DNA of 36,195 nt from a virus (lineage: Duplodnaviria > Heunggongvirae > Uroviricota > Caudoviricetes): IMG/VR virus record IMGVR_UViG_3300029686_000222, positions 1 through 36,195 of that record; one strand, 5' to 3'. Positions 1 through 36,195 of this stretch are shown here, one piece after another. Below the pieces are notes generated by a model that was not told where the DNA came from, did no database searches, and saw only the letters and a program-made list of their open reading frames with translations. The number at the start of each line of letters is the position of its first letter. Position 1 is the stretch's first letter. Made by a program: the position numbers and the translations under genes.

Positions 1-1206
1 ATGTTTGATCCCCAAAAGGTAAATGAAAATAAAGAGGCATTTTTTCTGTATGTGAATGCCAGTGGTGAACTTTCTGCACAAAGTGTTATCAGGGTTGTAG
101 AGAGAGAAGGATTTGTTCAAGGGTATTCTTTGAGTCGTCGTGGTTTTAGGACTTTTCGTAAAGATAGAATCTTGCGAATGTTTGATTCAGAAGCTGCCCT
201 TAATGAGGCTTTTAATGCATGGAATGATGAACCGCCTCTGACTTCCAGTGATTATATTCCTCCCAAGCAATCCACGTCGAAAAACAAATTCTCTATTTGC
301 TTTACTGGGTTTAAACAATCAGATAGGGCGCGGTTAACAGAAATAGCCGTTAATAATAATTTTGATGTGAAAATGGATGTTTCAAAATCGTTATTCATTC
401 TTTGTGTTGGCGATAATAAGGGATGGAGAAAGGTTCAAAAGGCTAACGATTACGGTGCACTTATTCTGAGCGAAGGACAATTCCTGAGTTTTATAGATAC
501 TGGAGAAATACCTTATAAATCTGAAGATATTGGTGATGCTTATCAACAAAATATAGAAAAGGATGTTGAAGCTTGGCAACGTATGGTTGAAGAGTTTTCT
601 TTAACTGTTCGTACGGTGCGGGAACCAAGGCGAAGCACTGCGCTTATAGCAAATTTTTCTGATGGTTTTGCTGTTGGTTGGCGTTTCGCTGTGAAGGAGG
701 TCTTTAAAGAGGCGCTTGATATAAGGCTGACAAAGGTTACTTATGGTGATTACATTTATGAGGTTTGGACGCAAGGTTCCTCTTACCAGTTTCACCAAGG
801 AGATGTATTTTATAGTGACCGTAGTGGTTATGGTTCTTACTCTGAATTTCTACAAAGAGATGATGCAGTTGTCTTACAGGTAAAATATGAATGTTTTTCT
901 GGTTACGATACTGTTTCCTTGTTTGATGGTTCCTTTAGCGGTGAGCTTTCAGTTAATGGGCGCATAGAACCTCGCATTGTTGAGCGTCTTCCTGTTTTAG
1001 TTGAAAGTCAAACCTATGACCCCGGAAAAATTATTGTGGATGTTTTTATCCCCAATGAAAAAAGAAATAAATTAAAATTGTTTGGTGAGTTGTCGATGAA
1101 CCAAGATGATTTTATTTATCTTTTGCAATCCGGATGTTATTGGCAAAAGAAAAAAGGGGAGCGTCCAGAATTGATAAATATTTTCGATGCTATAAAGAAT
1201 ATGTGA
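1..1206 (+). CDS. WYL-domain + BRCT-domain protein with an uncharacterised ~200-aa C-terminal domain (401 aa); possibly N-terminally truncated by the window edge
   Basis: ORF starts at base 1. N-terminus has a WYL-like signature (GFVQGYSLSRRGFRTFRKDRI, resembling the WYL...R-x-FRldRI core). Residues ~95-165 (FSICFTGFKQSDRARLTEIAVNNNFDVKMDVSKSLFILCVGDNKGWRKVQKANDYGALILSEGQF) match the BRCT fold pattern seen in LigA-type BRCT domains. Markedly AT-rich compared with the prophage. Followed by an intrinsic terminator. Confidence 0.6.
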   Translation: MFDPQKVNENKEAFFLYVNASGELSAQSVIRVVEREGFVQGYSLSRRGFRTFRKDRILRMFDSEAALNEAFNAWNDEPPLTSSDYIPPKQSTSKNKFSICFTGFKQSDRARLTEIAVNNNFDVKMDVSKSLFILCVGDNKGWRKVQKANDYGALILSEGQFLSFIDTGEIPYKSEDIGDAYQQNIEKDVEAWQRMVEEFSLTVRTVREPRRSTALIANFSDGFAVGWRFAVKEVFKEALDIRLTKVTYGDYIYEVWTQGSSYQFHQGDVFYSDRSGYGSYSEFLQRDDAVVLQVKYECFSGYDTVSLFDGSFSGELSVNGRIEPRIVERLPVLVESQTYDPGKIIVDVFIPNEKRNKLKLFGELSMNQDDFIYLLQSGCYWQKKKGERPELINIFDAIKNM

Positions 1207-1239
1207 ATTACATCATTGTGAGTGGTCCCAAAAAGAAAA

Positions 1240-1271
1240 CTCGCAGTTTTTACGCTGCGAGTTTCTGCTTT
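1240..1271 (+). terminator. Rho-independent terminator downstream of the WYL-BRCT gene
   Basis: Perfect 7-bp stem CTCGCAG / CTGCGAG with 8-nt loop, followed by TTTCTGCTTT. Confidence 0.6.
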
Positions 1272-1316
1272 GGGATGTGTATAGGGTGCCTTATCAGTCT
1301 TGCCCTGACAACCGAT

Positions 1317-1338
1317 TGACGGGGGATTGCTCCCCCGT
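1317..1338 (-). other. Stem-loop immediately 3' of the hok-like ORF (candidate hok mRNA 3'-terminal hairpin)
   Basis: GACGGGGG-attgct-CCCCCGTC, 8-bp GC-rich perfect stem, 12 nt downstream of the hok-like stop on the minus strand. Confidence 0.3.
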
Positions 1339-1349
1339 CGCGGTTTCCT

Positions 1350-1490
1350 TACTGCTTACACTGTAAGAACGCCGCAAACTCCGCTCCCCAGAAACTCATC
1401 CGTATCTCACACAGCGAACCGTGCAGCATCCAGATGATGAGGATTGCCGTTACGCAGAACGTAATGGCCGTAAGCGATTTTTGCGACATA
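1350..1490 (-). CDS. Hok/Gef-family type I toxin (46 aa): MSQKSLTAITFCVTAILIIWMLHGSLCEIRMSFWGAEFAAFLQCKQ
   Basis: Hand-translated from the minus strand; not in the ORF track because it is shorter than 60 aa. Single N-terminal TM helix, conserved SLCEIR and AAFLxCK motifs shared with HokA/HokB/Gef. AAGGAG Shine-Dalgarno 9 nt upstream of the ATG. Confidence 0.8.
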
Positions 1491-1699
1491 GCGCTTGCTC
1501 CTTTTTCAGGGAGGCGCTAACCTATCACTTGTCTAGGGTAGATGGTTAGGGCCTCGGTTAAACAAAAATGTTTTCCGGGGCCTTTCCACATCCGGCCTTC
1601 AGGTATTCCCTCCAGCCATCAGCCGAAAGGCACCCGCGCGAATTCTAGCCTGGTTTTTTCCCTTGTTTCAATCCGTTGAGGCCTGTCAGCCTTTTGATA

Positions 1700-1777
1700 T
1701 AAAATTCCCGACCGCAGACATTATTCAGTCACGCATTTGATACATGCTTCCGCCGGCGTTCGCGCCGGTTTTTTTTG
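1700..1777 (+). ncRNA. Candidate Sok-like antisense RNA, opposite the hok mRNA leader; 5' end undefined
   Basis: Inferred from hok/sok architecture: a plus-strand intrinsic terminator at 1751-1777 sits upstream (in minus-strand sense) of the hok ORF, where the antisense RNA normally lies. Promoter not confidently identified. Confidence 0.3.
1751..1777 (+). terminator. Rho-independent terminator (plus strand), likely 3' end of the antisense RNA of the hok-like locus
   Basis: CCGGCG-ttcg-CGCCGG stem-loop followed by an 8-T run. Confidence 0.55.
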
Positions 1778-2007
1778 TCCTGTTGCTGCGTAGATCGTCA
1801 TGTGCGATCGATGCGCTGTATTGATCCTTTTTTCAGTTTAATTTTGACTCTTAATTTTACGCAGGCCGCGCCGCGTCTGGCTTCGTTGTTTGACGATTTT
1901 TTGATGCGATCCTTTCGTGATCGTGTCTCATCTCACGTAAAGCATGAAAACTCTTTTAATATCATACAGTTTTATTGCTCCTGCCATTTATGGGATCGTA
2001 AAAACCT

Positions 2008-2200
2008 CTCTGAAAACTGAAAAAAATTTCAAAGCGTGAAATTTCAGATCTTCGCTTTTCCCTCAGTTGCTGCGCGGGCTGGCGGTCATTTTTGCACGGC
2101 AGAAAACTGAAAAAGTGTTTCGACACGAAACCCGCGGGTTGGAGGGGGTAGCGCGGTTTACGTCACCTCACGCTTTACGTCACTCCGTTTACGCGGTGTG
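2008..2200. repeat. Cluster of short direct and inverted repeats in the non-coding gap between the hok-like locus and the prophage tail operon
   Basis: Two copies of GAAAACTGAAAAA, each followed by a small inverted repeat (AAATTTCA..TGAAATTT; GTTTCG..CGAAAC); then three direct copies of TTTACG(T/C) within GCGGTTTACGTCACCTCACGCTTTACGTCACTCCGTTTACGCGG. Confidence 0.3.
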
Positions 2201-2250
2201 TGCATACAGCGCCAGAATGGCACGCAGAACGCATTAATCAGGTGGTGGAT

Positions 2251-2279
2251 AGGAAAACGCACGGCCGGGACCGTGCGTT
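2251..2279 (-). terminator. Candidate terminator of the tail operon (minus strand)
   Basis: ACGCACGG-ccggga-CCGTGCGT hairpin about 40 bp beyond the spike-gene stop, followed on the minus strand by TTTCCT. Confidence 0.4.
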
Positions 2280-2317
2280 GCGTGATGGGGCGTTTATGTG
2301 GCTTTTATGTCTGGTGT

Positions 2318-4015
2318 TCAGGCGATAATGTCGCCGTATTTTTCGCGCAGACTCGTCGCCTGCAGGGCATCTGCGGCAAGTTCGCCGCTGTTCATTGGCG
2401 TGCCTGTGTTGCTATGGGTGTGGTTTGCTGTATGTGTGGCCAGCAATTGAATCAGATCCAGAATATCGATCAGCAACGTCAGCAGGTTAAGCCCGGACTT
2501 TTCCCGCGAGCCGCCGCGACCAATAAATACTGTCGGGGAGGTAAACTCCAGACCGCCGTCCGCCCTGCATGTTCTGCGGCCTCCCACGTTTTCGGTGAGG
2601 TCATGCTCAATGGTGGATATCGCCCCTTTGAGTTGAGTCAGCAAATCCTGCGCTACCATCTGGATATGCTCACCGGCTGCGATCGCATAATTGCCGGTAG
2701 TAAGGTGTTCTGTCTGGCCTGTCATCAGCTTACTGGTGCCAAGAACACTGGTTATGTCGTTTGCCTGGACTGTTGTTGTTCTGGTTGTTGTTGTGCGTTC
2801 TTCCTGATCGCTGTTAATGGTTCGCCTGGCTGAATGCTCCCTGATTTGCTGGTCAGTTTCTCTGTGCCAGCTTCCGTCAGTCGTGACGCGCTGAAACACT
2901 TCTGCGCGCTGTTGCTGCAGTTGTTCGCCGGGCTTTACATCAGGCAGGTTATGGCCCGCGGGTAAGATTTGCCTGATGACAGGTTTATCCGGTCGCCCTT
3001 CAATGTTGGATATTTCCACGATGGTGCCTGCCGGCGGGTAGGCAAAACATCCCGCCTCGCTACCTGCCATCGGGACGGGGAGTGGTACTGCCGGATAAAC
3101 AGGCGTATCGCTTTTATCGTTGCCGTTCTCATCAAGCAGTTGCACATCGACGGCGTAGCGTGGGCGGAAGCTGTCGGCAATATCGCCTAGGGTGACGGAT
3201 TCCGTTGGGGCAATGACGCGCGCCAGCCGGGTATGCAGAGTGCCGCTGGCCAGTTCCGGGAACTGTGTTTCCATCTGTCTGCGTAATGGTGATTTGGAAA
3301 CAGGGCTACCCGTGGCGGTAAGGCGTTCCCATGTCAGGGTCATTTTCTCGTTGTTGAGGGCTACACGGGTAATGCGCCCGGCCGGAAGGTTCACGCCCGG
3401 CCGCACAGTTTCCATAAACATGATGTCGATGCTGTTTCCGCCGCTTTGCCCGAGTGTGTACTGTTGCGGAATATCCGGCATGGTAATACTGGCAAACCGT
3501 GAATCCGGTGCGCTTCCCACAAATACGGAACCGTCCGGCATTGGATGCCAGACGTAATCGCTGATACTGAATGCTCGCCCCAGCTGGCTGAGCAGTTGTG
3601 CTCCGCTGCCGCTGTGGGTGATGTAAGGTGTCGGTGTGCTGACGTAATCCGCATCTGGCGTGATGAAAACGATGCCGCTTTGTTTACCCAGATTATCGAG
3701 TACATCCCGTAACGTTGGATGTTGCATGGAGCAGGGGAAATCAAAATCCAGCACGGCAGCTGCTTCACGGATAAAAAGGCGGCGTGAGCCATTTTCGGCG
3801 GGTTGATCGCGCTCAATGTAGCCGGAGAAATAGCGCCATGCCTCACCATTACGGCCGAGATCAATTTGTATCATTGCGCCGGCAAGGCTTTTTTCCGGTG
3901 ACAGATTATTAACAGAAATGAAGCCGCGACCGGCAGCATTCAGGGTAAGGACAAGGCTGATATCGGCAATTTCCGCCAGCTCGCCATTAATCATGCAACG
4001 TTGGATTAATTTCAT
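2318..4015 (-). CDS. Large central tail spike / hub-spike protein (gpV/VgrG-like), 565 aa
   Basis: Last gene of the tail operon, ATGA-coupled to the upstream gene, AGAGGAAGGG RBS. Internal motif PPAGTIVEISNIEGRPDKPVIRQ resembles the gpV/gp5 OB-fold signature; C-terminal HTANHTHSNTGTPMNSGEL resembles the HxH apex of P2 gpV. The ~320-aa N-terminal domain is of unknown type. Confidence 0.6.
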   Translation of the reverse strand: MKLIQRCMINGELAEIADISLVLTLNAAGRGFISVNNLSPEKSLAGAMIQIDLGRNGEAWRYFSGYIERDQPAENGSRRLFIREAAAVLDFDFPCSMQHPTLRDVLDNLGKQSGIVFITPDADYVSTPTPYITHSGSGAQLLSQLGRAFSISDYVWHPMPDGSVFVGSAPDSRFASITMPDIPQQYTLGQSGGNSIDIMFMETVRPGVNLPAGRITRVALNNEKMTLTWERLTATGSPVSKSPLRRQMETQFPELASGTLHTRLARVIAPTESVTLGDIADSFRPRYAVDVQLLDENGNDKSDTPVYPAVPLPVPMAGSEAGCFAYPPAGTIVEISNIEGRPDKPVIRQILPAGHNLPDVKPGEQLQQQRAEVFQRVTTDGSWHRETDQQIREHSARRTINSDQEERTTTTRTTTVQANDITSVLGTSKLMTGQTEHLTTGNYAIAAGEHIQMVAQDLLTQLKGAISTIEHDLTENVGGRRTCRADGGLEFTSPTVFIGRGGSREKSGLNLLTLLIDILDLIQLLATHTANHTHSNTGTPMNSGELAADALQATSLREKYGDIIA

Positions 4016-25970: not shown

Positions 25971-26064
25971 GTGTTAGTCCTTATTCTGCTGTGCTTTCAA
26001 CTGATGAGGGGAACAAAATCGTTTCAGTGCGTTGGCATCAGGGCGGATGCGCCCTGATGTTGTG

Positions 26065-26376
26065 TTATTCGGGAAATAACGCCCGGATATTCCCGGCCAT
26101 CTGGCTGGTTATCTGTGTGGTTGGCGTTGGAGGTGTCGCAGGGCGTTCTGCTCTGGTTTGTGTCACTGATAACGCTTCATCATCAGCCCATGCAGCCAGT
26201 CGGTAAGCCTCTGCCGGATTCATTTTCAGAAGTGCCAGCCCGGCCAGAAAAGCCACGCGTTGGCCGCTTTTGCGGGCTTCTGGTGTAAGGCTGTCCAGCC
26301 AGGCGCATGCTTCGCCTTCGTTCTTGACGGCGGCGGGCTTCAGATAGAAACTTATCCGTCTGGTTGGTGTCGTCAT
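26065..26376 (-). CDS. parR: ParR-like plasmid partition adaptor (DNA-binding), ~103 aa
   Basis: RRISFYLKPAAVKNEGEACAWLDSLTPEARKSGQRVAFLAGLALL aligns with plasmid R1 ParR (RRTIAFKLNPDVNQTDKIVCDTLDSIPQGERSRLNRAALTAGLAL); AAGGAG RBS; 4 bp after the parM stop. Confidence 0.8.
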   Translation of the reverse strand: MTTPTRRISFYLKPAAVKNEGEACAWLDSLTPEARKSGQRVAFLAGLALLKMNPAEAYRLAAWADDEALSVTQTRAERPATPPTPTTQITSQMAGNIRALFPE

Positions 26377-26380
26377 TGGT

Positions 26381-27340
26381 TTACTCCTTGTCCATTGCGT
26401 ACAGCCCATTAACCAGAGCAAACTGTGGCACCCTGTCCGCGATGAAAGTCGCATTAACTCCGCAGGCTTCGCGGATAGCGGGTGCCACAATCTCCGCCCC
26501 GCCACCGACAACCATCACCCGCCCGTAACCCGAAAAACCCGCCAGCGCGCGGATCACGCGTTGTTTCAGTGTTTCTTCCTTTTCACGAATAACCGCCATC
26601 AGGCCGGCGTAATGCGCGTCATTGTGGATGTGCTGGCGCAGCCAGGCTTCATCGTGGCGATGTTCGATAATGGTATTGGCGATATGGTGACTGGTACGCA
26701 TACCGTTGGTGGCCATCACTGACAGTACGGCATCGGCTATCAGGGAAACGCCTACGTGTGGATCGCAAAATACCTGGCTGATACCTGCCAGTTGTCCCTG
26801 AACCTTTGCCACATCCAGCGTGGTTCCGCCCAAATCCACAATCAGCAGGGATTCAAACGGACTCATGTCAGCCAGTGCCTTAAAGCCAGCCGGAATGGAT
26901 TCAGGCATAACCCGCACGTTACGGATAGTGAATGCCTCACCGTTCTGGTACTCCACCGGGCGCATGACGTTCGCTTTTTTGCGGTTGATGTTGGCCATGT
27001 CCGGCTGTGCGTTTGTGTCGAAATACTCGCTCAGTGGCAGGGTGACAACCACATCCACCTCCTGTGGCGTGATGCCTGATTTGACCAGCGCATGATGAAT
27101 GGCAATGACATTCACATCGCTGTACTGGTATTGCGTGTCGGTCGTCTGGACAAAGCGATCGCTGACCGGATCAAAACCATAGCGCACGCCATCAAGCATG
27201 TAGTTCGCGGGCTGCGTGCCACCGAACGGCGCAGACCATTCCGACTTGAAGCTGTTCGGGCTGATGGCGTTGCGGCGTTCGCCGTTCTCAGTCCATGCCA
27301 GCTTGATGTTGGTGGAGCCGTCGTCGATACAAATTTTCAT
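26381..27340 (-). CDS. parM: ParM/StbA-like actin-type partition ATPase, 319 aa
   Basis: N-terminal phosphate-1 motif MKICIDDGSTNIKLAW (R1 ParM: FIDDGSTNIKLQW); later LIVDLGGTTLDV and VVGGGA motifs typical of the actin/ParM fold. Confidence 0.85.
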   Translation of the reverse strand: MKICIDDGSTNIKLAWTENGERRNAISPNSFKSEWSAPFGGTQPANYMLDGVRYGFDPVSDRFVQTTDTQYQYSDVNVIAIHHALVKSGITPQEVDVVVTLPLSEYFDTNAQPDMANINRKKANVMRPVEYQNGEAFTIRNVRVMPESIPAGFKALADMSPFESLLIVDLGGTTLDVAKVQGQLAGISQVFCDPHVGVSLIADAVLSVMATNGMRTSHHIANTIIEHRHDEAWLRQHIHNDAHYAGLMAVIREKEETLKQRVIRALAGFSGYGRVMVVGGGAEIVAPAIREACGVNATFIADRVPQFALVNGLYAMDKE

Positions 27341-27371
27341 GTAGCTTTTCCTTATGTTGATTAATTAATCG

Positions 27372-27470
27372 TTTACGGGATTCTGAAATCCCGTTTTCGC
27401 CTGTTTTGTGCGCGCTTCATATATCGCGGCGCGTTTTTTGCTCATTTACGGGATTTGTGAATCCCGTTTC
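27372..27470. repeat. Two near-identical imperfect palindromes (~26 bp) flanking the parM upstream region; candidate parC-like centromere or operator
   Basis: TTTACGGGATTCTGAAATCCCGTTTT (27372-27397) and TTTACGGGATTTGTGAATCCCGTTTC (27445-27470); the second lies inside the last codons of gene A. Confidence 0.4.
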
Positions 27471-30239
27471 TGTCTGCTTTTTGTTTCCACTGGTCAGGCC
27501 ACCCCGCAGCAGGTCTGCTTTGCGGCGGGCGCGTTCAGTGGTTTCACTGATTCTCTGTGCGTGCTCTGCGTCACGGATGGCGCGCAGCATGTCAGAAAGC
27601 ACGGTAACGGGGGTTTTCATGGTGTTCTGGTCCTGCTGAAGTGTGGATGCCAGGCGTGCGGCGGCTTCGGGGTCTGATGCCCCCAGCTGTTCCAGATAGC
27701 TGGCAACCGGGTTATGGCGGATCTCCGTGCTGCTTACGCCGTGATTACGGCTCAGGCGCTGCCAGAGCTGCGTGATTCGGCTGTCCGGGCGGGTATCCGG
27801 TTTGCGTACAATTTCAAATCCCTGCGGTGCAATGATGCTGCCGTCAACGTACAGGCTGCCGCCCCGTAACAGGTGCTGCATCTGATGTTCACCGATATGC
27901 AGGCCGAGAGATTCAGCAGACTCCCGCCATTCTTTAGCGAGTAATTCGTGGTTATCAGGCAAAGGCCGCTGCTGTTTGCGGCTCTGTGTCCAGCTCTGCA
28001 TTTCATCACTGCTGTTTTTTGCCTGTTTGTCACGCAGCGAACGCATCAGCGCCCGGCGTTCGTGCCGTTTCAGTGAGCGCATCCATTCGTTCACTTCAAT
28101 GCCGTCAGGGAACTGCGGCCACGGTGTTGGCCGTTCTTCCGGCTGTTCTGTCCCGCTGTTGTCCGTTTCCTGTACACGGGGACAGTTATTGCCACGAGTC
28201 CAAGGGGCGGCAGGGCCGCCCTGAAGGTCAAAACCATTTTCGCGGGTGCTGTCTTCCGCTTCCGGTTTGCGTCTTACCAGCTTCCAGTTATCCGGATGCG
28301 TGCACACACGGGAGGATTCCCCGATGAGTGGTGACCAGATCCCGTAAATCTGTACGCTCTGTTCGCCGTAATCGTTCAGCTCATCTGCGAGGTCGTAGGC
28401 GGTGCGAATCAGGTAGTCTTTGCGTGGAACAAGTACGCCGCCCTGTTTCTCTATGTAGGTGGCAAAACATCCGGCATCAGCGGCAGCAAGAACCGCGTCC
28501 ATTGCGTCATCCTTCAGCCGTTGCGGTCCTTCCGGGTTGCGAGCCATCTGGCTGGCAAGGCGACGCAGTTCACGCCACACCTGACGGGAGGGGATACCAA
28601 AGAACTGGAACTGGCGGACCCGGTGAAGGCGCGCCCAGCCGATGGCACGCTCCACGCTCTCGGCCATTGATTTTCCGGTTTCGTGGTCAACGCGTGGCTT
28701 GCCCGTTTTCGGGTCGATGCCATCCACGGCGCGGTTGTCCAGGTTCTTTCCGATGTAGGTGGCGATGTAGCTGGTTGGTGTGCCTTTTGAGCCGTCGACA
28801 TACTCCACCTTAAAGCGCGGAGTAATATCATTGCCCAGCTCGTGGCGGTCTTCCTGAATGGCAATATCGCGGGTGTGGGACACAATGGTGTCGATTTCTT
28901 CCGGATGAGCAAAGACCATCATATGCCAGTGCACGGTGCCGTCATGGTGAGGCTCCACCGTGCGGATGCCATACCAGCGCAGGCCGTCGCGGTTCAGTTT
29001 CTTGCGGACCGCCGCAAAAAACGTGTTAACCAGGTAATCGCTGGAGTCGCGCATGGTGGCCCCGTTCCATTTGGGATTCGGATGACCGTTCTCTGTTGTG
29101 GCGTGGTATTTTGACGGGCAGGTGACAGTCAGAAACACCGCTTTGTCGCCACGGGCTTCGGCCAGAAGTTCCAGTCCCTTCATGGTGGCCATCATTTCTG
29201 CCTTACGGTGAACCGGGTTACTTACTCCCGCGTAATACACTGTCTCGAGATCAATCGTGAACCCGTCTTCGTTTTCCAGCATGAAACTTTTCAGGAAATC
29301 GCGTGTTTTCTCGCGCTGTGCGCGAAACTCGCTTAACGCGTCCTGGCTCAGATAGGGCGATGTTTTTCTGGAAACCAGACAGGCGGCGCGGAGTTGTTCT
29401 TCCCGCCACTCGCAACGTAACAGCCACAGTTTGCGTTTCCACCATTCCGCACAGGTCAGGCGAAGGATTGCGCCCGGCAGCAGCTCCGTGTCCGGTTCGT
29501 TCCTCCGGTCTTTATCTGTTGTCAGTGCGTCATAATGTGGAGGCATGGCGTGCAGGTGTAACGCCATGCGGGCCAGCATCTGATACGCCTTCAGCGTTAC
29601 GTCCATGGTCAGCTCGCCATCGGTCGCGCCAAAGCCATCACAGAGTTTTTCGAAGGTGCTGCTGAACATCGCCGCCGTCATGGTAGCCAGCGTCTGTATC
29701 TGGTGCTTGTTGAGCTGCGGCAGGTAAAGCAAATCGTCCAGGCGTTCGCGTCCGGCAAGAGAGCGATAACCCGGTGTCAGCCAGCGGTGGTCGGTGCGGT
29801 CCAGACGTTCGAATATTTTGCGCAGGGTTCCGCGCGCGTAGCGTTCAGCCTGCCAGCTCTTTTTGCCTTTCCGGCGATCGGCTTCCTGTTTTTTGCGCAG
29901 GAAGGAGAGGTGGCGAATAAGCGTATCGCGCAGATAGGACGGCAGCAGGCGCAGCGAGGCCATGGCTTCATCCACCGCACCGCGTGCCTGTTTTCTGGCT
30001 TCTCTGGCCAGTGTGATGGTTTTGTCCTGCTTTTCCTGTGCGTCCAGGCTTTTATTAATCAGGTTGCCCAGCGGTGTGGCGGAGAACGCCGCGTCAGCCA
30101 TTTCCTGGCGGCGCTCGTTCTCTGCCCGGTAGGCATCCAGCCAGGAGGAAAGTGCGGATTCAGGTGCGGGGATCCCCGTTCCTTCACGTCCTACTGTGTG
30201 GCGCGGTTGTTGCCAGTCCCTGATGTACTCTGTCGTCAT
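27417..30239 (-). CDS. A: Replication initiation endonuclease, P2 gpA-like (rolling-circle HUH-type), 940 aa
   Basis: HUH-like motif VHWHMMVF and paired catalytic tyrosines in YIATYIGK, as in P2 A / phiX174 A-type initiators. Confidence 0.85.
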   Translation of the reverse strand: MTTEYIRDWQQPRHTVGREGTGIPAPESALSSWLDAYRAENERRQEMADAAFSATPLGNLINKSLDAQEKQDKTITLAREARKQARGAVDEAMASLRLLPSYLRDTLIRHLSFLRKKQEADRRKGKKSWQAERYARGTLRKIFERLDRTDHRWLTPGYRSLAGRERLDDLLYLPQLNKHQIQTLATMTAAMFSSTFEKLCDGFGATDGELTMDVTLKAYQMLARMALHLHAMPPHYDALTTDKDRRNEPDTELLPGAILRLTCAEWWKRKLWLLRCEWREEQLRAACLVSRKTSPYLSQDALSEFRAQREKTRDFLKSFMLENEDGFTIDLETVYYAGVSNPVHRKAEMMATMKGLELLAEARGDKAVFLTVTCPSKYHATTENGHPNPKWNGATMRDSSDYLVNTFFAAVRKKLNRDGLRWYGIRTVEPHHDGTVHWHMMVFAHPEEIDTIVSHTRDIAIQEDRHELGNDITPRFKVEYVDGSKGTPTSYIATYIGKNLDNRAVDGIDPKTGKPRVDHETGKSMAESVERAIGWARLHRVRQFQFFGIPSRQVWRELRRLASQMARNPEGPQRLKDDAMDAVLAAADAGCFATYIEKQGGVLVPRKDYLIRTAYDLADELNDYGEQSVQIYGIWSPLIGESSRVCTHPDNWKLVRRKPEAEDSTRENGFDLQGGPAAPWTRGNNCPRVQETDNSGTEQPEERPTPWPQFPDGIEVNEWMRSLKRHERRALMRSLRDKQAKNSSDEMQSWTQSRKQQRPLPDNHELLAKEWRESAESLGLHIGEHQMQHLLRGGSLYVDGSIIAPQGFEIVRKPDTRPDSRITQLWQRLSRNHGVSSTEIRHNPVASYLEQLGASDPEAAARLASTLQQDQNTMKTPVTVLSDMLRAIRDAEHAQRISETTERARRKADLLRGGLTSGNKKQTETGFTNPVNEQKTRRDI

Positions 30240-30914: not shown

Positions 30915-31093
30915 GGTGTGGCCTCTCTGTTAGTCAGTTTTGAAAACTCACCATCCAGAGGTTCCAAGCTCGGGGTGGTGAGACGCACAGGGTTGGAACT
31001 ACCGGCTAACAGAGGACCCGGCCCAGCTGATGCTGGCCCTGTACGCCCCACCATAATTCGTGTGCGAAAAAGACATGGCGATACGGTACGCAC

Positions 31094-31114
31094 AAAAAAA
31101 CCGCTGGCGCGGTT
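31094..31114 (-). terminator. Weak candidate intrinsic terminator within the early-region intergenic gap
   Basis: Minus-strand AACCGC-gcca-GCGGTT followed by TTTTT; 6-bp stem only. Confidence 0.3.
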
Positions 31115-31234
31115 GTGCGCTCTGTTAGTCTGCGGGGTTCCAATCCCGGCACCCGTTTTATGAGATGCAGCGGAAATGTAACCTGACTGATTGCGGCATG
31201 GCAAGCGGTTTTTTTGTGTGTGCATGATGATTAC

Positions 31235-34299: not shown

Positions 34300-34764
34300 T
34301 TATGCTGCTTTACCGTTGATGTTTCTGTTTCGTCTGCCACTTGTTGGCTTAAACAAAAACAGACGGTTTTCCCAGTCGTGCCATTCCTGAGGTGCGTTTT
34401 CGATGAGGCGATCGCATGCTTCATCCCACGCTTTTCTGTTGATGTAGAGTTCAGCGTTTCCGCCTGGCTTGAGAGGGTCCGCCATATACACCGCAGGTAG
34501 CTTTCCTGCTTTTGCCATGCTTACGATGGCATCAACGGTCTTTCCGATATACATCGCAAACCCTTCTTTTGACAGGAGATGCGAGGGATTTTCTGAAAGT
34601 CGAATTTCTTCACGTTCACGTGCTTTGCGTCCTGTTTTTTGATGCTCACCTTCTGGCATTTCTGACAGGTGATCGCATCGTGTTCCGCAAAGTGACTCAG
34701 GCGCGTTTTGAGTGCTTTCTTGCATCTGATATCCTCCGCCATTGGTGCTCTTTCTAATTGGCAC
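34300..34764 (-). CDS. Cox-like excisionase / early-promoter regulator; start uncertain
   Basis: C-terminal ~85 aa (GFAMYIGKTVDAIVSMAKAGKLPAVYMADPL...) parallels P2 Cox (EFAKLIGKSTGAVRRMIDKGKLPVIDMTDP...). Divergent from C. The GTG at 34764 gives 154 aa; internal ATGs at codons 14, 36 and 71 are alternatives. Confidence 0.6.
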   Translation of the reverse strand: MPIRKSTNGGGYQMQESTQNAPESLCGTRCDHLSEMPEGEHQKTGRKAREREEIRLSENPSHLLSKEGFAMYIGKTVDAIVSMAKAGKLPAVYMADPLKPGGNAELYINRKAWDEACDRLIENAPQEWHDWENRLFLFKPTSGRRNRNINGKAA

Positions 34765-34839
34765 TAGTTGGAACCACTTAGAACATTTGTTTGCTGTTCA
34801 TATGTGGTGTTAATCTACACATATGTAGGAGTTTGTCAA
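34765..34839. promoter_or_regulatory. Divergent C / cox-like promoter-operator region with inverted repeats
   Basis: 75-bp gap between divergent repressor and cox-like genes; CATATGTG ... CACATATG inverted repeat and GAACA..TGTTC dyad. Confidence 0.5.
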
Positions 34840-35133
34840 ATGGACATTCCTCAAAAAATTCGCGTCATGCGCAAATCTGAAGATCTCACTCAGCGGGAAT
34901 TCGCTGATATGATTGGAATTTCTTATTCTGCTCTGACCAGTTATGAGTATGGTCGTAACCTTCCTGGCCTTGAGATCACTATCAAGCTTTTCAAGCACCC
35001 GAGATTTTCTAAATACCGCGACTGGTTTCTGTTTGATGAAGTTGAACCCAAGGCCGGGCAGGTTGTACCGGCTCTCGCACACATTGGGCAAGGCGAAGCG
35101 GAATCATCCCGCTCCGGCAAGAAGACTGGTTAA
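34840..35133 (+). CDS. C: Immunity repressor, P2 C-like (98 aa)
   Basis: Start at the ATG with AGGAG RBS. KIRVMRKSEDLTQREFADMIGISYSALTSYEYGRN and the VPALAHIGQGE...SGKKTG terminus match P2 C (KIVLMRKSEYLSRQQLADLTGVPYGTLSYYESGRS ... APALAHFGQNE...SGQKTG). Confidence 0.85.
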   Translation: MDIPQKIRVMRKSEDLTQREFADMIGISYSALTSYEYGRNLPGLEITIKLFKHPRFSKYRDWFLFDEVEPKAGQVVPALAHIGQGEAESSRSGKKTG

Positions 35134-35199
35134 CGGTTCACCAGGCATTTATTTCCCAGAGCTGTGATCAAGATGATGTTTTCATTGGAGGGCTTCCTT

Positions 35200-36195
35200 A
35201 TGTCGATTAAGAAGCTCGCTAATGGCAAATTTTGTGTGGACGTGCGGCCAGCTGGATCAGAAGGAAAAAGATTCAGGCGGCGATTTGATACTCGTGGTGA
35301 GGCTGTTTTGTATGAGCGTCATGTATTGCAGCATTACCACGACAAAGACTGGGTTGATAAGCCAACAGAACGGCGCTCGCTGAGGGAGTTGCTGGATTGT
35401 TGGTGGCTATACCACGGGAAAAATCATCCTTACGGTGCGATGGAGCGAGTGCGTATTTCTGCGGTCATTAGTGATCTTGAAAGTATTAATGTTACACGCA
35501 GCGACCAACTTACTCGTAAGAACATAATTAATTATCGGTTATTGTTGCTTAACCGCGGAATAAAACAATCCACGGTTAATCGTTATTGCGCAATGATGAG
35601 TGGTTTCTTCACAAAACTAATTGACGCAGAGGAATATTCTGGGGCTAATCCGTTTCATGATGTGAAAAAACTTAATATCAAACAGCCTGAAATGGCTTAT
35701 TTGTATCATGAAGATATTCCACGATTACTGGAGTTGTTATCTGGTGATGAATTAAAAGCTGTCTTGTTGTGTCTGGCAACAGGTGGAAGATGGAGTGAGG
35801 TTGCAAATATCAAGGGGGAGCATGTTATTAGCGGCAAAGTCATTTTTATGGAAACCAAAAATGGGAAGCGTCGCGTTATACCTATATCGTCAGAACTGGA
35901 GTGCATGATTAAAACAAAGGCCACTGGTCGTTTAATTTATCCAAGTTATGCAGCTGTCAGAGCTGCTATCAGAAAGGTGAGGCCCGATCTTCCTGAAGGG
36001 CAGTCGATACATGTTTTACGGCATACCTTTGCCACTCACTTCATGATTAATGGTGGGAATATCATCACTTTGCAGAGAATACTTGGACATAGCACTATTC
36101 AGCAGACGATGACTTATGCCCATTTTGCACCGGATTATCTACAGGATGCTGTGCGCTTTAATCCTGTGGCTGAGTTGTCCAGATATTGCCCATAA
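35200..36195 (+). CDS. int: Tyrosine integrase, P2 Int family (331 aa)
   Basis: Start at the ATG with GGAG RBS (MSIKKLANGKFCVDVRPAG...). C-terminal catalytic block HVLRHTFATHFMINGGNIITLQRILGHSTIQQTMTYAHFAPDYLQDAV is near-identical in pattern to P2 Int. The stop is the last base of the window. Confidence 0.9.
   Translation: MSIKKLANGKFCVDVRPAGSEGKRFRRRFDTRGEAVLYERHVLQHYHDKDWVDKPTERRSLRELLDCWWLYHGKNHPYGAMERVRISAVISDLESINVTRSDQLTRKNIINYRLLLLNRGIKQSTVNRYCAMMSGFFTKLIDAEEYSGANPFHDVKKLNIKQPEMAYLYHEDIPRLLELLSGDELKAVLLCLATGGRWSEVANIKGEHVISGKVIFMETKNGKRRVIPISSELECMIKTKATGRLIYPSYAAVRAAIRKVRPDLPEGQSIHVLRHTFATHFMINGGNIITLQRILGHSTIQQTMTYAHFAPDYLQDAVRFNPVAELSRYCP

Follow-up and report, generated by a model that had tools for sequence, protein, structure and literature searches.

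We analysed the viral DNA record IMGVR_UViG_3300029686_000222 over its full length of 36,195 nucleotides (referred to here as the window). Two adjacent genes on its minus strand, parM and parR, form a cassette which we consider, with a probability of roughly 55%, to be a functional type II (ParMRC-type) DNA-segregation module belonging to a long-standing phage-specific branch of ParM/ParR in a subset of P2-like phages. The window element is assigned to the P88-like Xuanwuvirus group (P88-type, P2-like temperate phages; Peduoviridae), with which it shares its gene order. The 3' end of gene A together with parM and parR is 94.6-97.2% identical to the corresponding region of Escherichia phage P88 (NC_026014), P884B11, the Citrobacter phage phiSM, 520873 and 503458, among others, and the cassettes annotated in P88, Xuanwuvirus P884B11, phiSM, 520873 and others show 95-99% DNA and protein identity to that of the window. 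These P88-like records have the same neighbours as the window and name the two products 'plasmid segregation protein ParM' and 'partition protein', whereas the cargo downstream of parR differs between the window and its relatives.

An earlier reading of the sequence (the original prediction) had described a complete ParM/ParR cassette, and this was confirmed as both genes are intact and matches were found in Pfam and the PDB. The parM gene (26381..27340, minus strand) encodes an actin-like segregation ATPase of 319 amino acids that matches both ParM domains in Pfam (PF06406 at 1.8e-82 and PF21523 at 2.6e-68), the 'partition protein' group phrog_691 and, in a full-length alignment, the R1 ParM in the PDB (1mwk; E=9.2e-93). 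The alignment to R1 keeps IDDGSTNIK, MPES (E148 in R1), DLGGTTLD (D170 in R1) and GGGAE, and the protein was thus found to have both the domains and the nucleotide-binding and catalytic motifs of a type II ParMRC ATPase. A survey of related P2-like prophages, which the original prediction had called for, found parM intact in 85 of the 93 loci sampled (91%) and broken in the other eight. Among the 85 loci in which parM and parR are both intact, the ratio of non-synonymous to synonymous divergence (dN/dS) of parM was 0.08 (mean dN 0.006, mean dS 0.072), and the gene is under strong purifying selection.

The ATG of parR is located at position 26376, four nucleotides past the parM stop codon, as it is in P88. 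The gene (26065..26376, minus strand) encodes an StbB-type adaptor of 103 amino acids (PF10784, the StbB family, at 2.5e-24; phrog_2515) that consists of a predicted N-terminal DNA-binding part, a variable linker rich in proline and glutamine and a conserved C-terminal NIxxLFPE motif which is common to plasmid ParRs (IncFII, IncL/M). Across 35 representative parR alleles, which are 46-91% identical to the ParR of the window, the N-terminus TRRISFYLKP, the helical core and the C-terminal residues N-I-x-x-x-F-P are kept, and the hypervariable linker is the only part that varies freely. Conserved ends joined by a flexible linker are the layout expected of a ParR, with a DNA-binding N-terminus and a ParM-binding tail. 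A comparison of ParR with the PDB gave no sequence match.

As a sequence observation the cassette is ordinary. It is already known, being annotated in RefSeq and remarked on in print, where a role in plasmid maintenance has already been suggested; roughly one in four P2-like phages was noted to have a putative partition system at the gpA-gpQ hotspot (Rousset et al. 2022). We did not find described in the literature the two-box cis element with its conservation between genera, the phage-specific ParM clade in the same slot of divergent P2-like phages, or the mosaic and highly diverged parR alleles.

Position and phylogeny of the cassette

Directly upstream of parM and in the same orientation lies gene A, which encodes a P2-type replication endonuclease of 940 amino acids (27417..30239, minus strand; PF05840 at 5.6e-131). 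Its stop codon occupies positions 27417-27419 and leaves a gap of 76 bp to parM. Since the portal gene lies on the other side of parMR, the cassette is situated, as had been proposed, in the gpA-gpQ (tin/old) interval that forms a hotspot in P2-like phages (Rousset et al. 2022). It shares this interval with the tin/old cargo but, unlike that variable cargo, parMR is conserved at the gene A-proximal edge with the variable genes beyond it.

The cassette was found in 1304 of 5426 complete E. coli genomes (24%), including O157:H7 and ST131. Thirty evenly spaced records were taken from the 1305 cassette-related E. coli records for a closer look at context; parM stands beside a P88-type gene A in 29 of them and was lost in one, and the cassette is a near-fixed feature of the P88 lineage. 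The original prediction had regarded a partition cassette alongside an integrase and a repressor as odd. All these genes are indeed present in the window, but a combination that is this frequent and already annotated is no oddity.

Beyond these close relatives there is a wide gap in sequence similarity. The best ParM from a non-prophage plasmid is 53.5% identical to that of the window, with nothing between 60 and 95% among 72,556 plasmids, and the only ParM homologues among phage records are those of P88-like phages and of the phage-plasmid D6 (48%). A scan of genome contigs for ParM gave three near-identical loci only, and the more distant relatives were reached by a protein search followed by contig look-ups. 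In a large protein collection the next relatives occur in Plesiomonas and Hafnia (62%), Serratia (58%) and Enterobacter (54%). Every one of these 54-62% relatives that could be located lies in a P2-like prophage with the order gene A, zero to two small genes, parM, parR, variable genes, in some cases an ogr gene, portal and terminase. The phages concerned are very divergent from the window element, their gene A being 29-55% and their portal 33-75% identical, and ParM is therefore at least as conserved as their core genes.

In a neighbour-joining tree of 106 ParM sequences, the fourteen from P2-like phages make up one group that is separate from the plasmid ParMs (IncFII, IncL/M and others), and the D6 ParM also falls outside this group. 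With a bootstrap value of 56%, which rises to 78% when a short-contig sequence whose context is unknown is included, the phage ParMs appear as a phage-specific clade of their own with moderate support. Taken with the conserved edge position in very divergent P2-like phages, this clade speaks against the earlier suggestion of a hitch-hiking stabiliser in the hotspot, and we take the cassette to be a module of the phage lineage and not recent plasmid cargo.

A different use of the same genes would be that of a facultative phage-plasmid, in which parMR would maintain the prophage as a low-copy plasmid over many generations, for instance in hosts without attB. This is suggested by a remark in Rousset et al. 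2022. The tailed P1-like phage D6, which is a phage-plasmid with a circular plasmid prophage, uses a ParM/ParR pair like that of the window, and one circular record of 34,461 bp from a cat E. coli isolate (pZ1323PEC0009-2, NZ_CP148288.1; PLSDB) is a complete P88-like phage genome that carries an integrase, parMR, a hok/gef gene and a com/methyltransferase pair. This lone record, however, could be either a true episome or an excised replicative form, and a further small 'plasmid' match from Shigella was rejected as evidence of a plasmid state when it was found to be a linear prophage fragment ridden with IS1. Almost all copies in complete E. coli genomes (1450 of 1452) are chromosomal, and phiSM, whose ParM is 98.7% identical to that of the window, is a functional integrating phage with integrated lysogens. 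The integrase, repressor and Cox genes are kept in all members examined; those of the window lie at 35164-36195, 34768-35133 (a C-type helix-turn-helix repressor) and 34300-34764 respectively. Gene A, which is of the rolling-circle type, is the sole replication gene recognised in the window. A replicon of plasmid type was not seen, and on these data the element does not qualify as a phage-plasmid. With nearly all copies in the chromosome, the integration module retained and the replication gene placed in an early operon that is repressed, lysogeny as a plasmid over the long term is unlikely, and the stable episomal maintenance proposed at the outset is not borne out by the data.

Paired boxes upstream of parM

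Two perfect 20-bp palindromes, each built of 8-bp arms around a 4-nt centre, were found upstream of parM. Box 1 (ACGGGATT-CTGA-AATCCCGT; 27375..27394) lies at -54 to -35 from the parM ATG and box 2 (ACGGGATT-TGTG-AATCCCGT; 27448..27467) at -127 to -108, at a distance of 73 bp from each other; we propose them as a first and a second ParR site. The motif ACGGGATT-N4-AATCCCGT occurs exactly twice in the window, both times with 0 mismatches, against a chance expectation of 0.13 even when three mismatches are allowed. The boxes form the cores of a 42-nt direct repeat of 76% identity (27369-27410 and 27442-27483). The palindromes had originally been given as two near-identical sequences of 26 bp; the pair and its place upstream of parM hold, but the perfect palindrome extends over 20 bp. 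That one of them lies inside the 3' end of gene A also proved right, box 2 being located within the last 17 codons of that gene. Between box 1 and the parM start, the leader (27341..27371, minus strand) contains a Shine-Dalgarno sequence AAGGA and an AT-rich ATTAAT(T/C)AA box, which were kept in three lineages in our alignment.

Conservation of the boxes within E. coli is largely uninformative because the whole upstream region is about 97% identical there. About half of the E. coli relatives have one imperfect arm in box 2, ACGGGACT, and the box 2 of P88 is likewise imperfect whereas both boxes of the window are perfect palindromes. The support for the box pair comes solely from comparison between genera, for which the 260 nt upstream of parM were scanned for 20-mers with GGG at positions 3-5 and CCC at positions 16-18. 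Exactly two such GGG-N10-CCC 20-mers were found in each of the window, Plesiomonas and Hafnia, at a background probability of 0.002-0.009 for at least two hits in 260 nt. Their positions are closely similar, with box 2 and box 1 beginning at -127 and -54 in the window (spacing 73 bp), -133 and -61 in Plesiomonas (72 bp) and -130 and -57 in Hafnia (73 bp). In each of the 11-36 kb loci they are the sole GGG-N10-CCC pair spaced 70-76 bp apart.

The upstream box lies in three non-homologous coding tails. In E. coli it is in gene A, in Plesiomonas it is in the tail of a gene A whose alignment to that of E. coli covers only the first 696 of 940 residues, and in Hafnia it is in the tail of a 167-residue open reading frame (ORF) that has no similarity to gene A. 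The link with the P2 origin made in the original prediction could not be demonstrated; the Hafnia box is outside gene A altogether. The three lineages that have the GGG-N10-CCC pair also share the ParR strand TRR[IV]SFYL. Half-sites in duplex DNA that are conserved in their spacing and in their distance from parM point to a dimeric DNA-binding protein more than to an RNA hairpin or terminator, and the comparison favours the pair of boxes as putative ParR-binding sites that would form a compact parC. The proposal of a parC-like centromere or ParR operator thereby gains comparative support from the common two-box geometry.

We considered whether the palindromes might instead act as RNA or DNA hairpins, either as intrinsic terminators on the plus strand against antisense transcription into gene A or as an element of the origin or nick site of gene A. 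Read on the plus strand, both form 8-bp hairpins followed by T-rich tails, and one was flagged as terminator-like. The window boxes do fold (-10.7 kcal/mol, z -3 to -3.8), and box 2 is still present in gene A where parMR has been lost. The boxes of Hafnia and Plesiomonas, however, keep the GGG-N10-CCC pattern and the 72-73 bp spacing, while their folds (-4.5 to -5 kcal/mol) are no more stable than those of shuffled sequence; since hairpin stability is not conserved, recognition of duplex DNA is indicated. Neither does a plus-strand gene read into the box region, and the Hafnia box outside gene A again argues against an origin. A scan of the window for the nick sequence of the P2 A protein and for the cos sequence of P2 gave no match, and neither the origin nor cos was located. 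We judge a hairpin, terminator or origin function for these palindromes to be quite improbable.

In the Serratia/Enterobacter clade, the ParR strand reads NRKISFYL and a different pair of elements is located at -119 to -54. In the three loci concerned (L015, L016 and L018) the GGG-N10-CCC boxes are replaced by a long inverted repeat with arms of 12-22 nt around ATAGAAAAAT and a gap of 22-28 nt, and L015 has an additional 14-bp palindrome, GCCGTTTAAACGGC, nearer to parM. These repeats are probably the cognate site of the divergent ParR of this clade, and the joint change of strand and repeat provides one apparent case of co-variation between protein and site.

The parR alleles and the limits of the module

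The two genes of the cassette differ widely in their divergence. Among the 85 loci, parR has a mean dS of 0.56 over the whole gene and of about 0.6 from codon 20 onwards, and the synonymous divergence of the E. coli alleles is about eight times that of the adjacent parM (0.56 against 0.07). The first 19 codons are conserved to the same degree as parM, with a sharp breakpoint at codon 19 beyond which the diverged part occupies positions 26065-26320 of the window. The dN/dS of parR rises from 0.23 for the helical core to 0.64 for the linker and tail. Clustered at 90% identity, ParR falls into dozens of groups, whereas full-length ParM forms about four. The alleles have the appearance of old, recombined (mosaic) variants, and their divergence might be due either to the left edge of the recombining hotspot lying inside parR or to a diversifying pressure on ParR.

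On the far side of parR, a perfect hairpin with 10-bp arms and a 4-nt loop (26036..26059) is located just past the stop codon, at the right-hand edge of the conserved module. Homology among the E. coli relatives ends at positions 26036-26065, and the hairpin could be an operon terminator or a recombination boundary. The variable hotspot cargo begins beyond parR and consists in the window of two ORFs of 125 and 68 amino acids.

The extreme diversity of parR, as might fit a conflict, together with the location in the gpA-gpQ defence hotspot, could be read as the mark of cargo with an exclusion role: a ParMR moron that destabilises incoming plasmids or phages sharing its centromere (incompatibility), or a tin/old-like defence. 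A search with PADLOC, however, gave no match for ParM, ParR or the 125- and 68-residue ORFs. The fixed position of parMR at the conserved edge across genera, with the truly variable cargo lying beyond parR, is also at odds with this, as are the appearance of the alleles as old recombined variants, the invariance of the predicted DNA-reading strand and ParM-binding tail of ParR, and selection on its core and linker that ranges from purifying to relaxed. An exclusion role thus has little to recommend it and we give it a low probability. As for a decaying relic of past plasmid-phage recombination with no current function, the eight loci with a broken parM and an O157:H7 copy in a degraded prophage are the only points in its favour, and it is already contradicted by the selection data (a dN/dS of 0.08 with 91% of copies intact), along with the synteny across genera and the conserved cis boxes, which makes it very improbable indeed.

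Some individual copies are rearranged. In IMGVR_UViG_2874920711_000009 (500-3300), gene A is interrupted in its 3' part by an IS66-family element with three ORFs, next to a frameshifted parM; the odd upstream sequence of this locus was examined as a new context and rejected on account of this insertion, and the locus serves as an example of a decaying copy. In E. coli O157:H7 Rafaela_II (1-3055), the cassette lies in a rearranged prophage remnant in which parM and parR are intact, and parR is bordered by an IS3 pseudogene and genes for tail-fibre assembly.

Proposed mechanism and neighbouring features

If the cassette is the segregation module that we propose, ParR would bind the two 20-bp boxes through its invariant N-terminal TRRISFYL strand. 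The boxes, 73 bp apart (about seven helical turns, and hence on the same face of the helix) and straddling the end of gene A, would together serve as a compact parC. The ends of ParM filaments may then be captured by the C-terminal NIxxLFPE tail of ParR, and phage DNA circles would be driven apart as the filaments grow. Following gene A in the same orientation, parMR is most likely transcribed with the early operon and would be active as long as the genome is outside the chromosome, first between infection and integration and again after excision or induction. The outcome could be that replicating circles are shared between both daughter cells, or that they are positioned for replication, by analogy with AlpAC in the prophage CGP3; maintenance of the integrated prophage would not require parMR. 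The binding of ParR to the boxes, the filament-driven movement and the timing are all inferred.

No terminator-like site was found on the minus strand between gene A and parM, and a scan of the parM upstream region for sigma-70 promoters gave no match of at least 9/12; a candidate derived by hand (TTCAGA-16-ATTAAT) reached only 8/12 and was dropped as evidence. With neither a terminator nor a good promoter in between, expression from the early operon is the simplest reading, and it is this expression that places the activity in the extrachromosomal phases.

The arrangement is best compared with the ParMRC system of the plasmids R1/NR1 (StbA/StbB), which has the same order of cis site, parM and parR and, as in the window, repeated sites upstream of parM. 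The R1 parC is intergenic and has a set of five 11-bp direct iterons on either side of the promoter (PMC2241845), whereas the window has only two inverted-repeat boxes, one of them inside the preceding gene. Its intergenic gap of 76 bp also contrasts with the roughly 250 bp and several AT-rich repeats of the plasmid relatives, and the par upstream region of D6 similarly holds several AT-rich repeats. The replicons differ as well, R1 being a low-copy theta plasmid and the window element an integrating rolling-circle phage. A closer functional parallel may be the AlpC/AlpA/alpS system of CGP3, an integrated prophage of Corynebacterium glutamicum, in which an actin-like protein and an adaptor that binds sites upstream of its own operon are expressed early after induction and are required if the circular phage DNA is to be replicated efficiently (PMC4446434). 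CGP3 belongs to another host phylum and another phage type, and AlpC/AlpA are likened to ParM/ParR by description, whereas the window proteins are close relatives of the plasmid ParM/ParR pair.

The more specific proposal is that P88-like and related P2-like phages have their own ancient ParMRC with a minimal two-box centromere, used as a cytoskeletal device in the extrachromosomal phases, either for segregating pre-integration and excised circles or for AlpAC-like positioning. We put this forward tentatively, as possible rather than probable. If true, this would be the first time that genome positioning by an actin-based system is shown for an integrating E. coli phage, and the system would be present in about a quarter of strains; it would extend the cytoskeletal positioning of phage DNA known from AlpAC of CGP3 to P2-like coliphages, and would constitute a very compact natural ParMRC centromere. 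The two-box cis element offers concrete targets for study in the tractable phages P88 and phiSM.

A number of observations weigh against a functional segregation module of this kind. The cis element has just two boxes where the R1 parC has ten iterons. In E. coli the boxes are about as variable as the sequence on either side of them, and a variant of the box-1 core (mostly CCC to CCT) is present in 29 of 104 loci. Variants of box 1 and box 2 in E. coli showed no link to the decay of parM and no co-variation with the ParR allele class, although the latter is consistent with the invariant N-terminal strand of ParR. In a P88-type prophage that lacks parMR (E. coli CUVET19-1704, NZ_CP115358, 3889-4149), an ead/Ea22-like pseudogene directly follows gene A and homology to the window stops about 10 bp past the gene A stop codon; box 1 is gone along with parMR, but box 2 is retained. 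The negative sigma-70 scan leaves gene order as the basis for the proposed timing. An AlphaFold2 model of the ParR monomer, in which a disordered stretch (63-86) separates the helices at 21-62 from a C-terminal helix (87-101), agrees broadly with the expected layout of the protein but is of low confidence (pLDDT, the predicted local distance difference test score, of 56), too low to establish a ribbon-helix-helix fold; its N-terminal strand is unstructured, as expected of an obligate dimer. Literature searches found no experimental work on the P88-like cassette.

Several other features of the window were noted in the course of the annotation. An Ogr/Delta-type zinc-finger gene (PF04606; 24694-25020, plus strand) lies directly after the portal gene, the end of which it overlaps. 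In the Plesiomonas and Hafnia prophages, too, the portal gene has an ogr-like neighbour, and this position differs from that of ogr in P2. At the left end of the window, a 401-residue ORF (1-1206, plus strand) has only a weak match to a BRCT domain and could be cargo of the other P2 variable locus or host DNA. Finally, two RNAs were matched in Rfam above the gathering score, namely a C4 antisense RNA (30971-31058, minus strand; 76 bits) and the Hfq-binding small RNA isrK (31094-31168, minus strand; 70 bits). Both sit just upstream of the 121-residue ORF that precedes gene A, and a 'derepression protein' is annotated nearby in P88. These matches suggest a P1/P7-style antisense-RNA immunity or antirepressor circuit within a P2-like phage.

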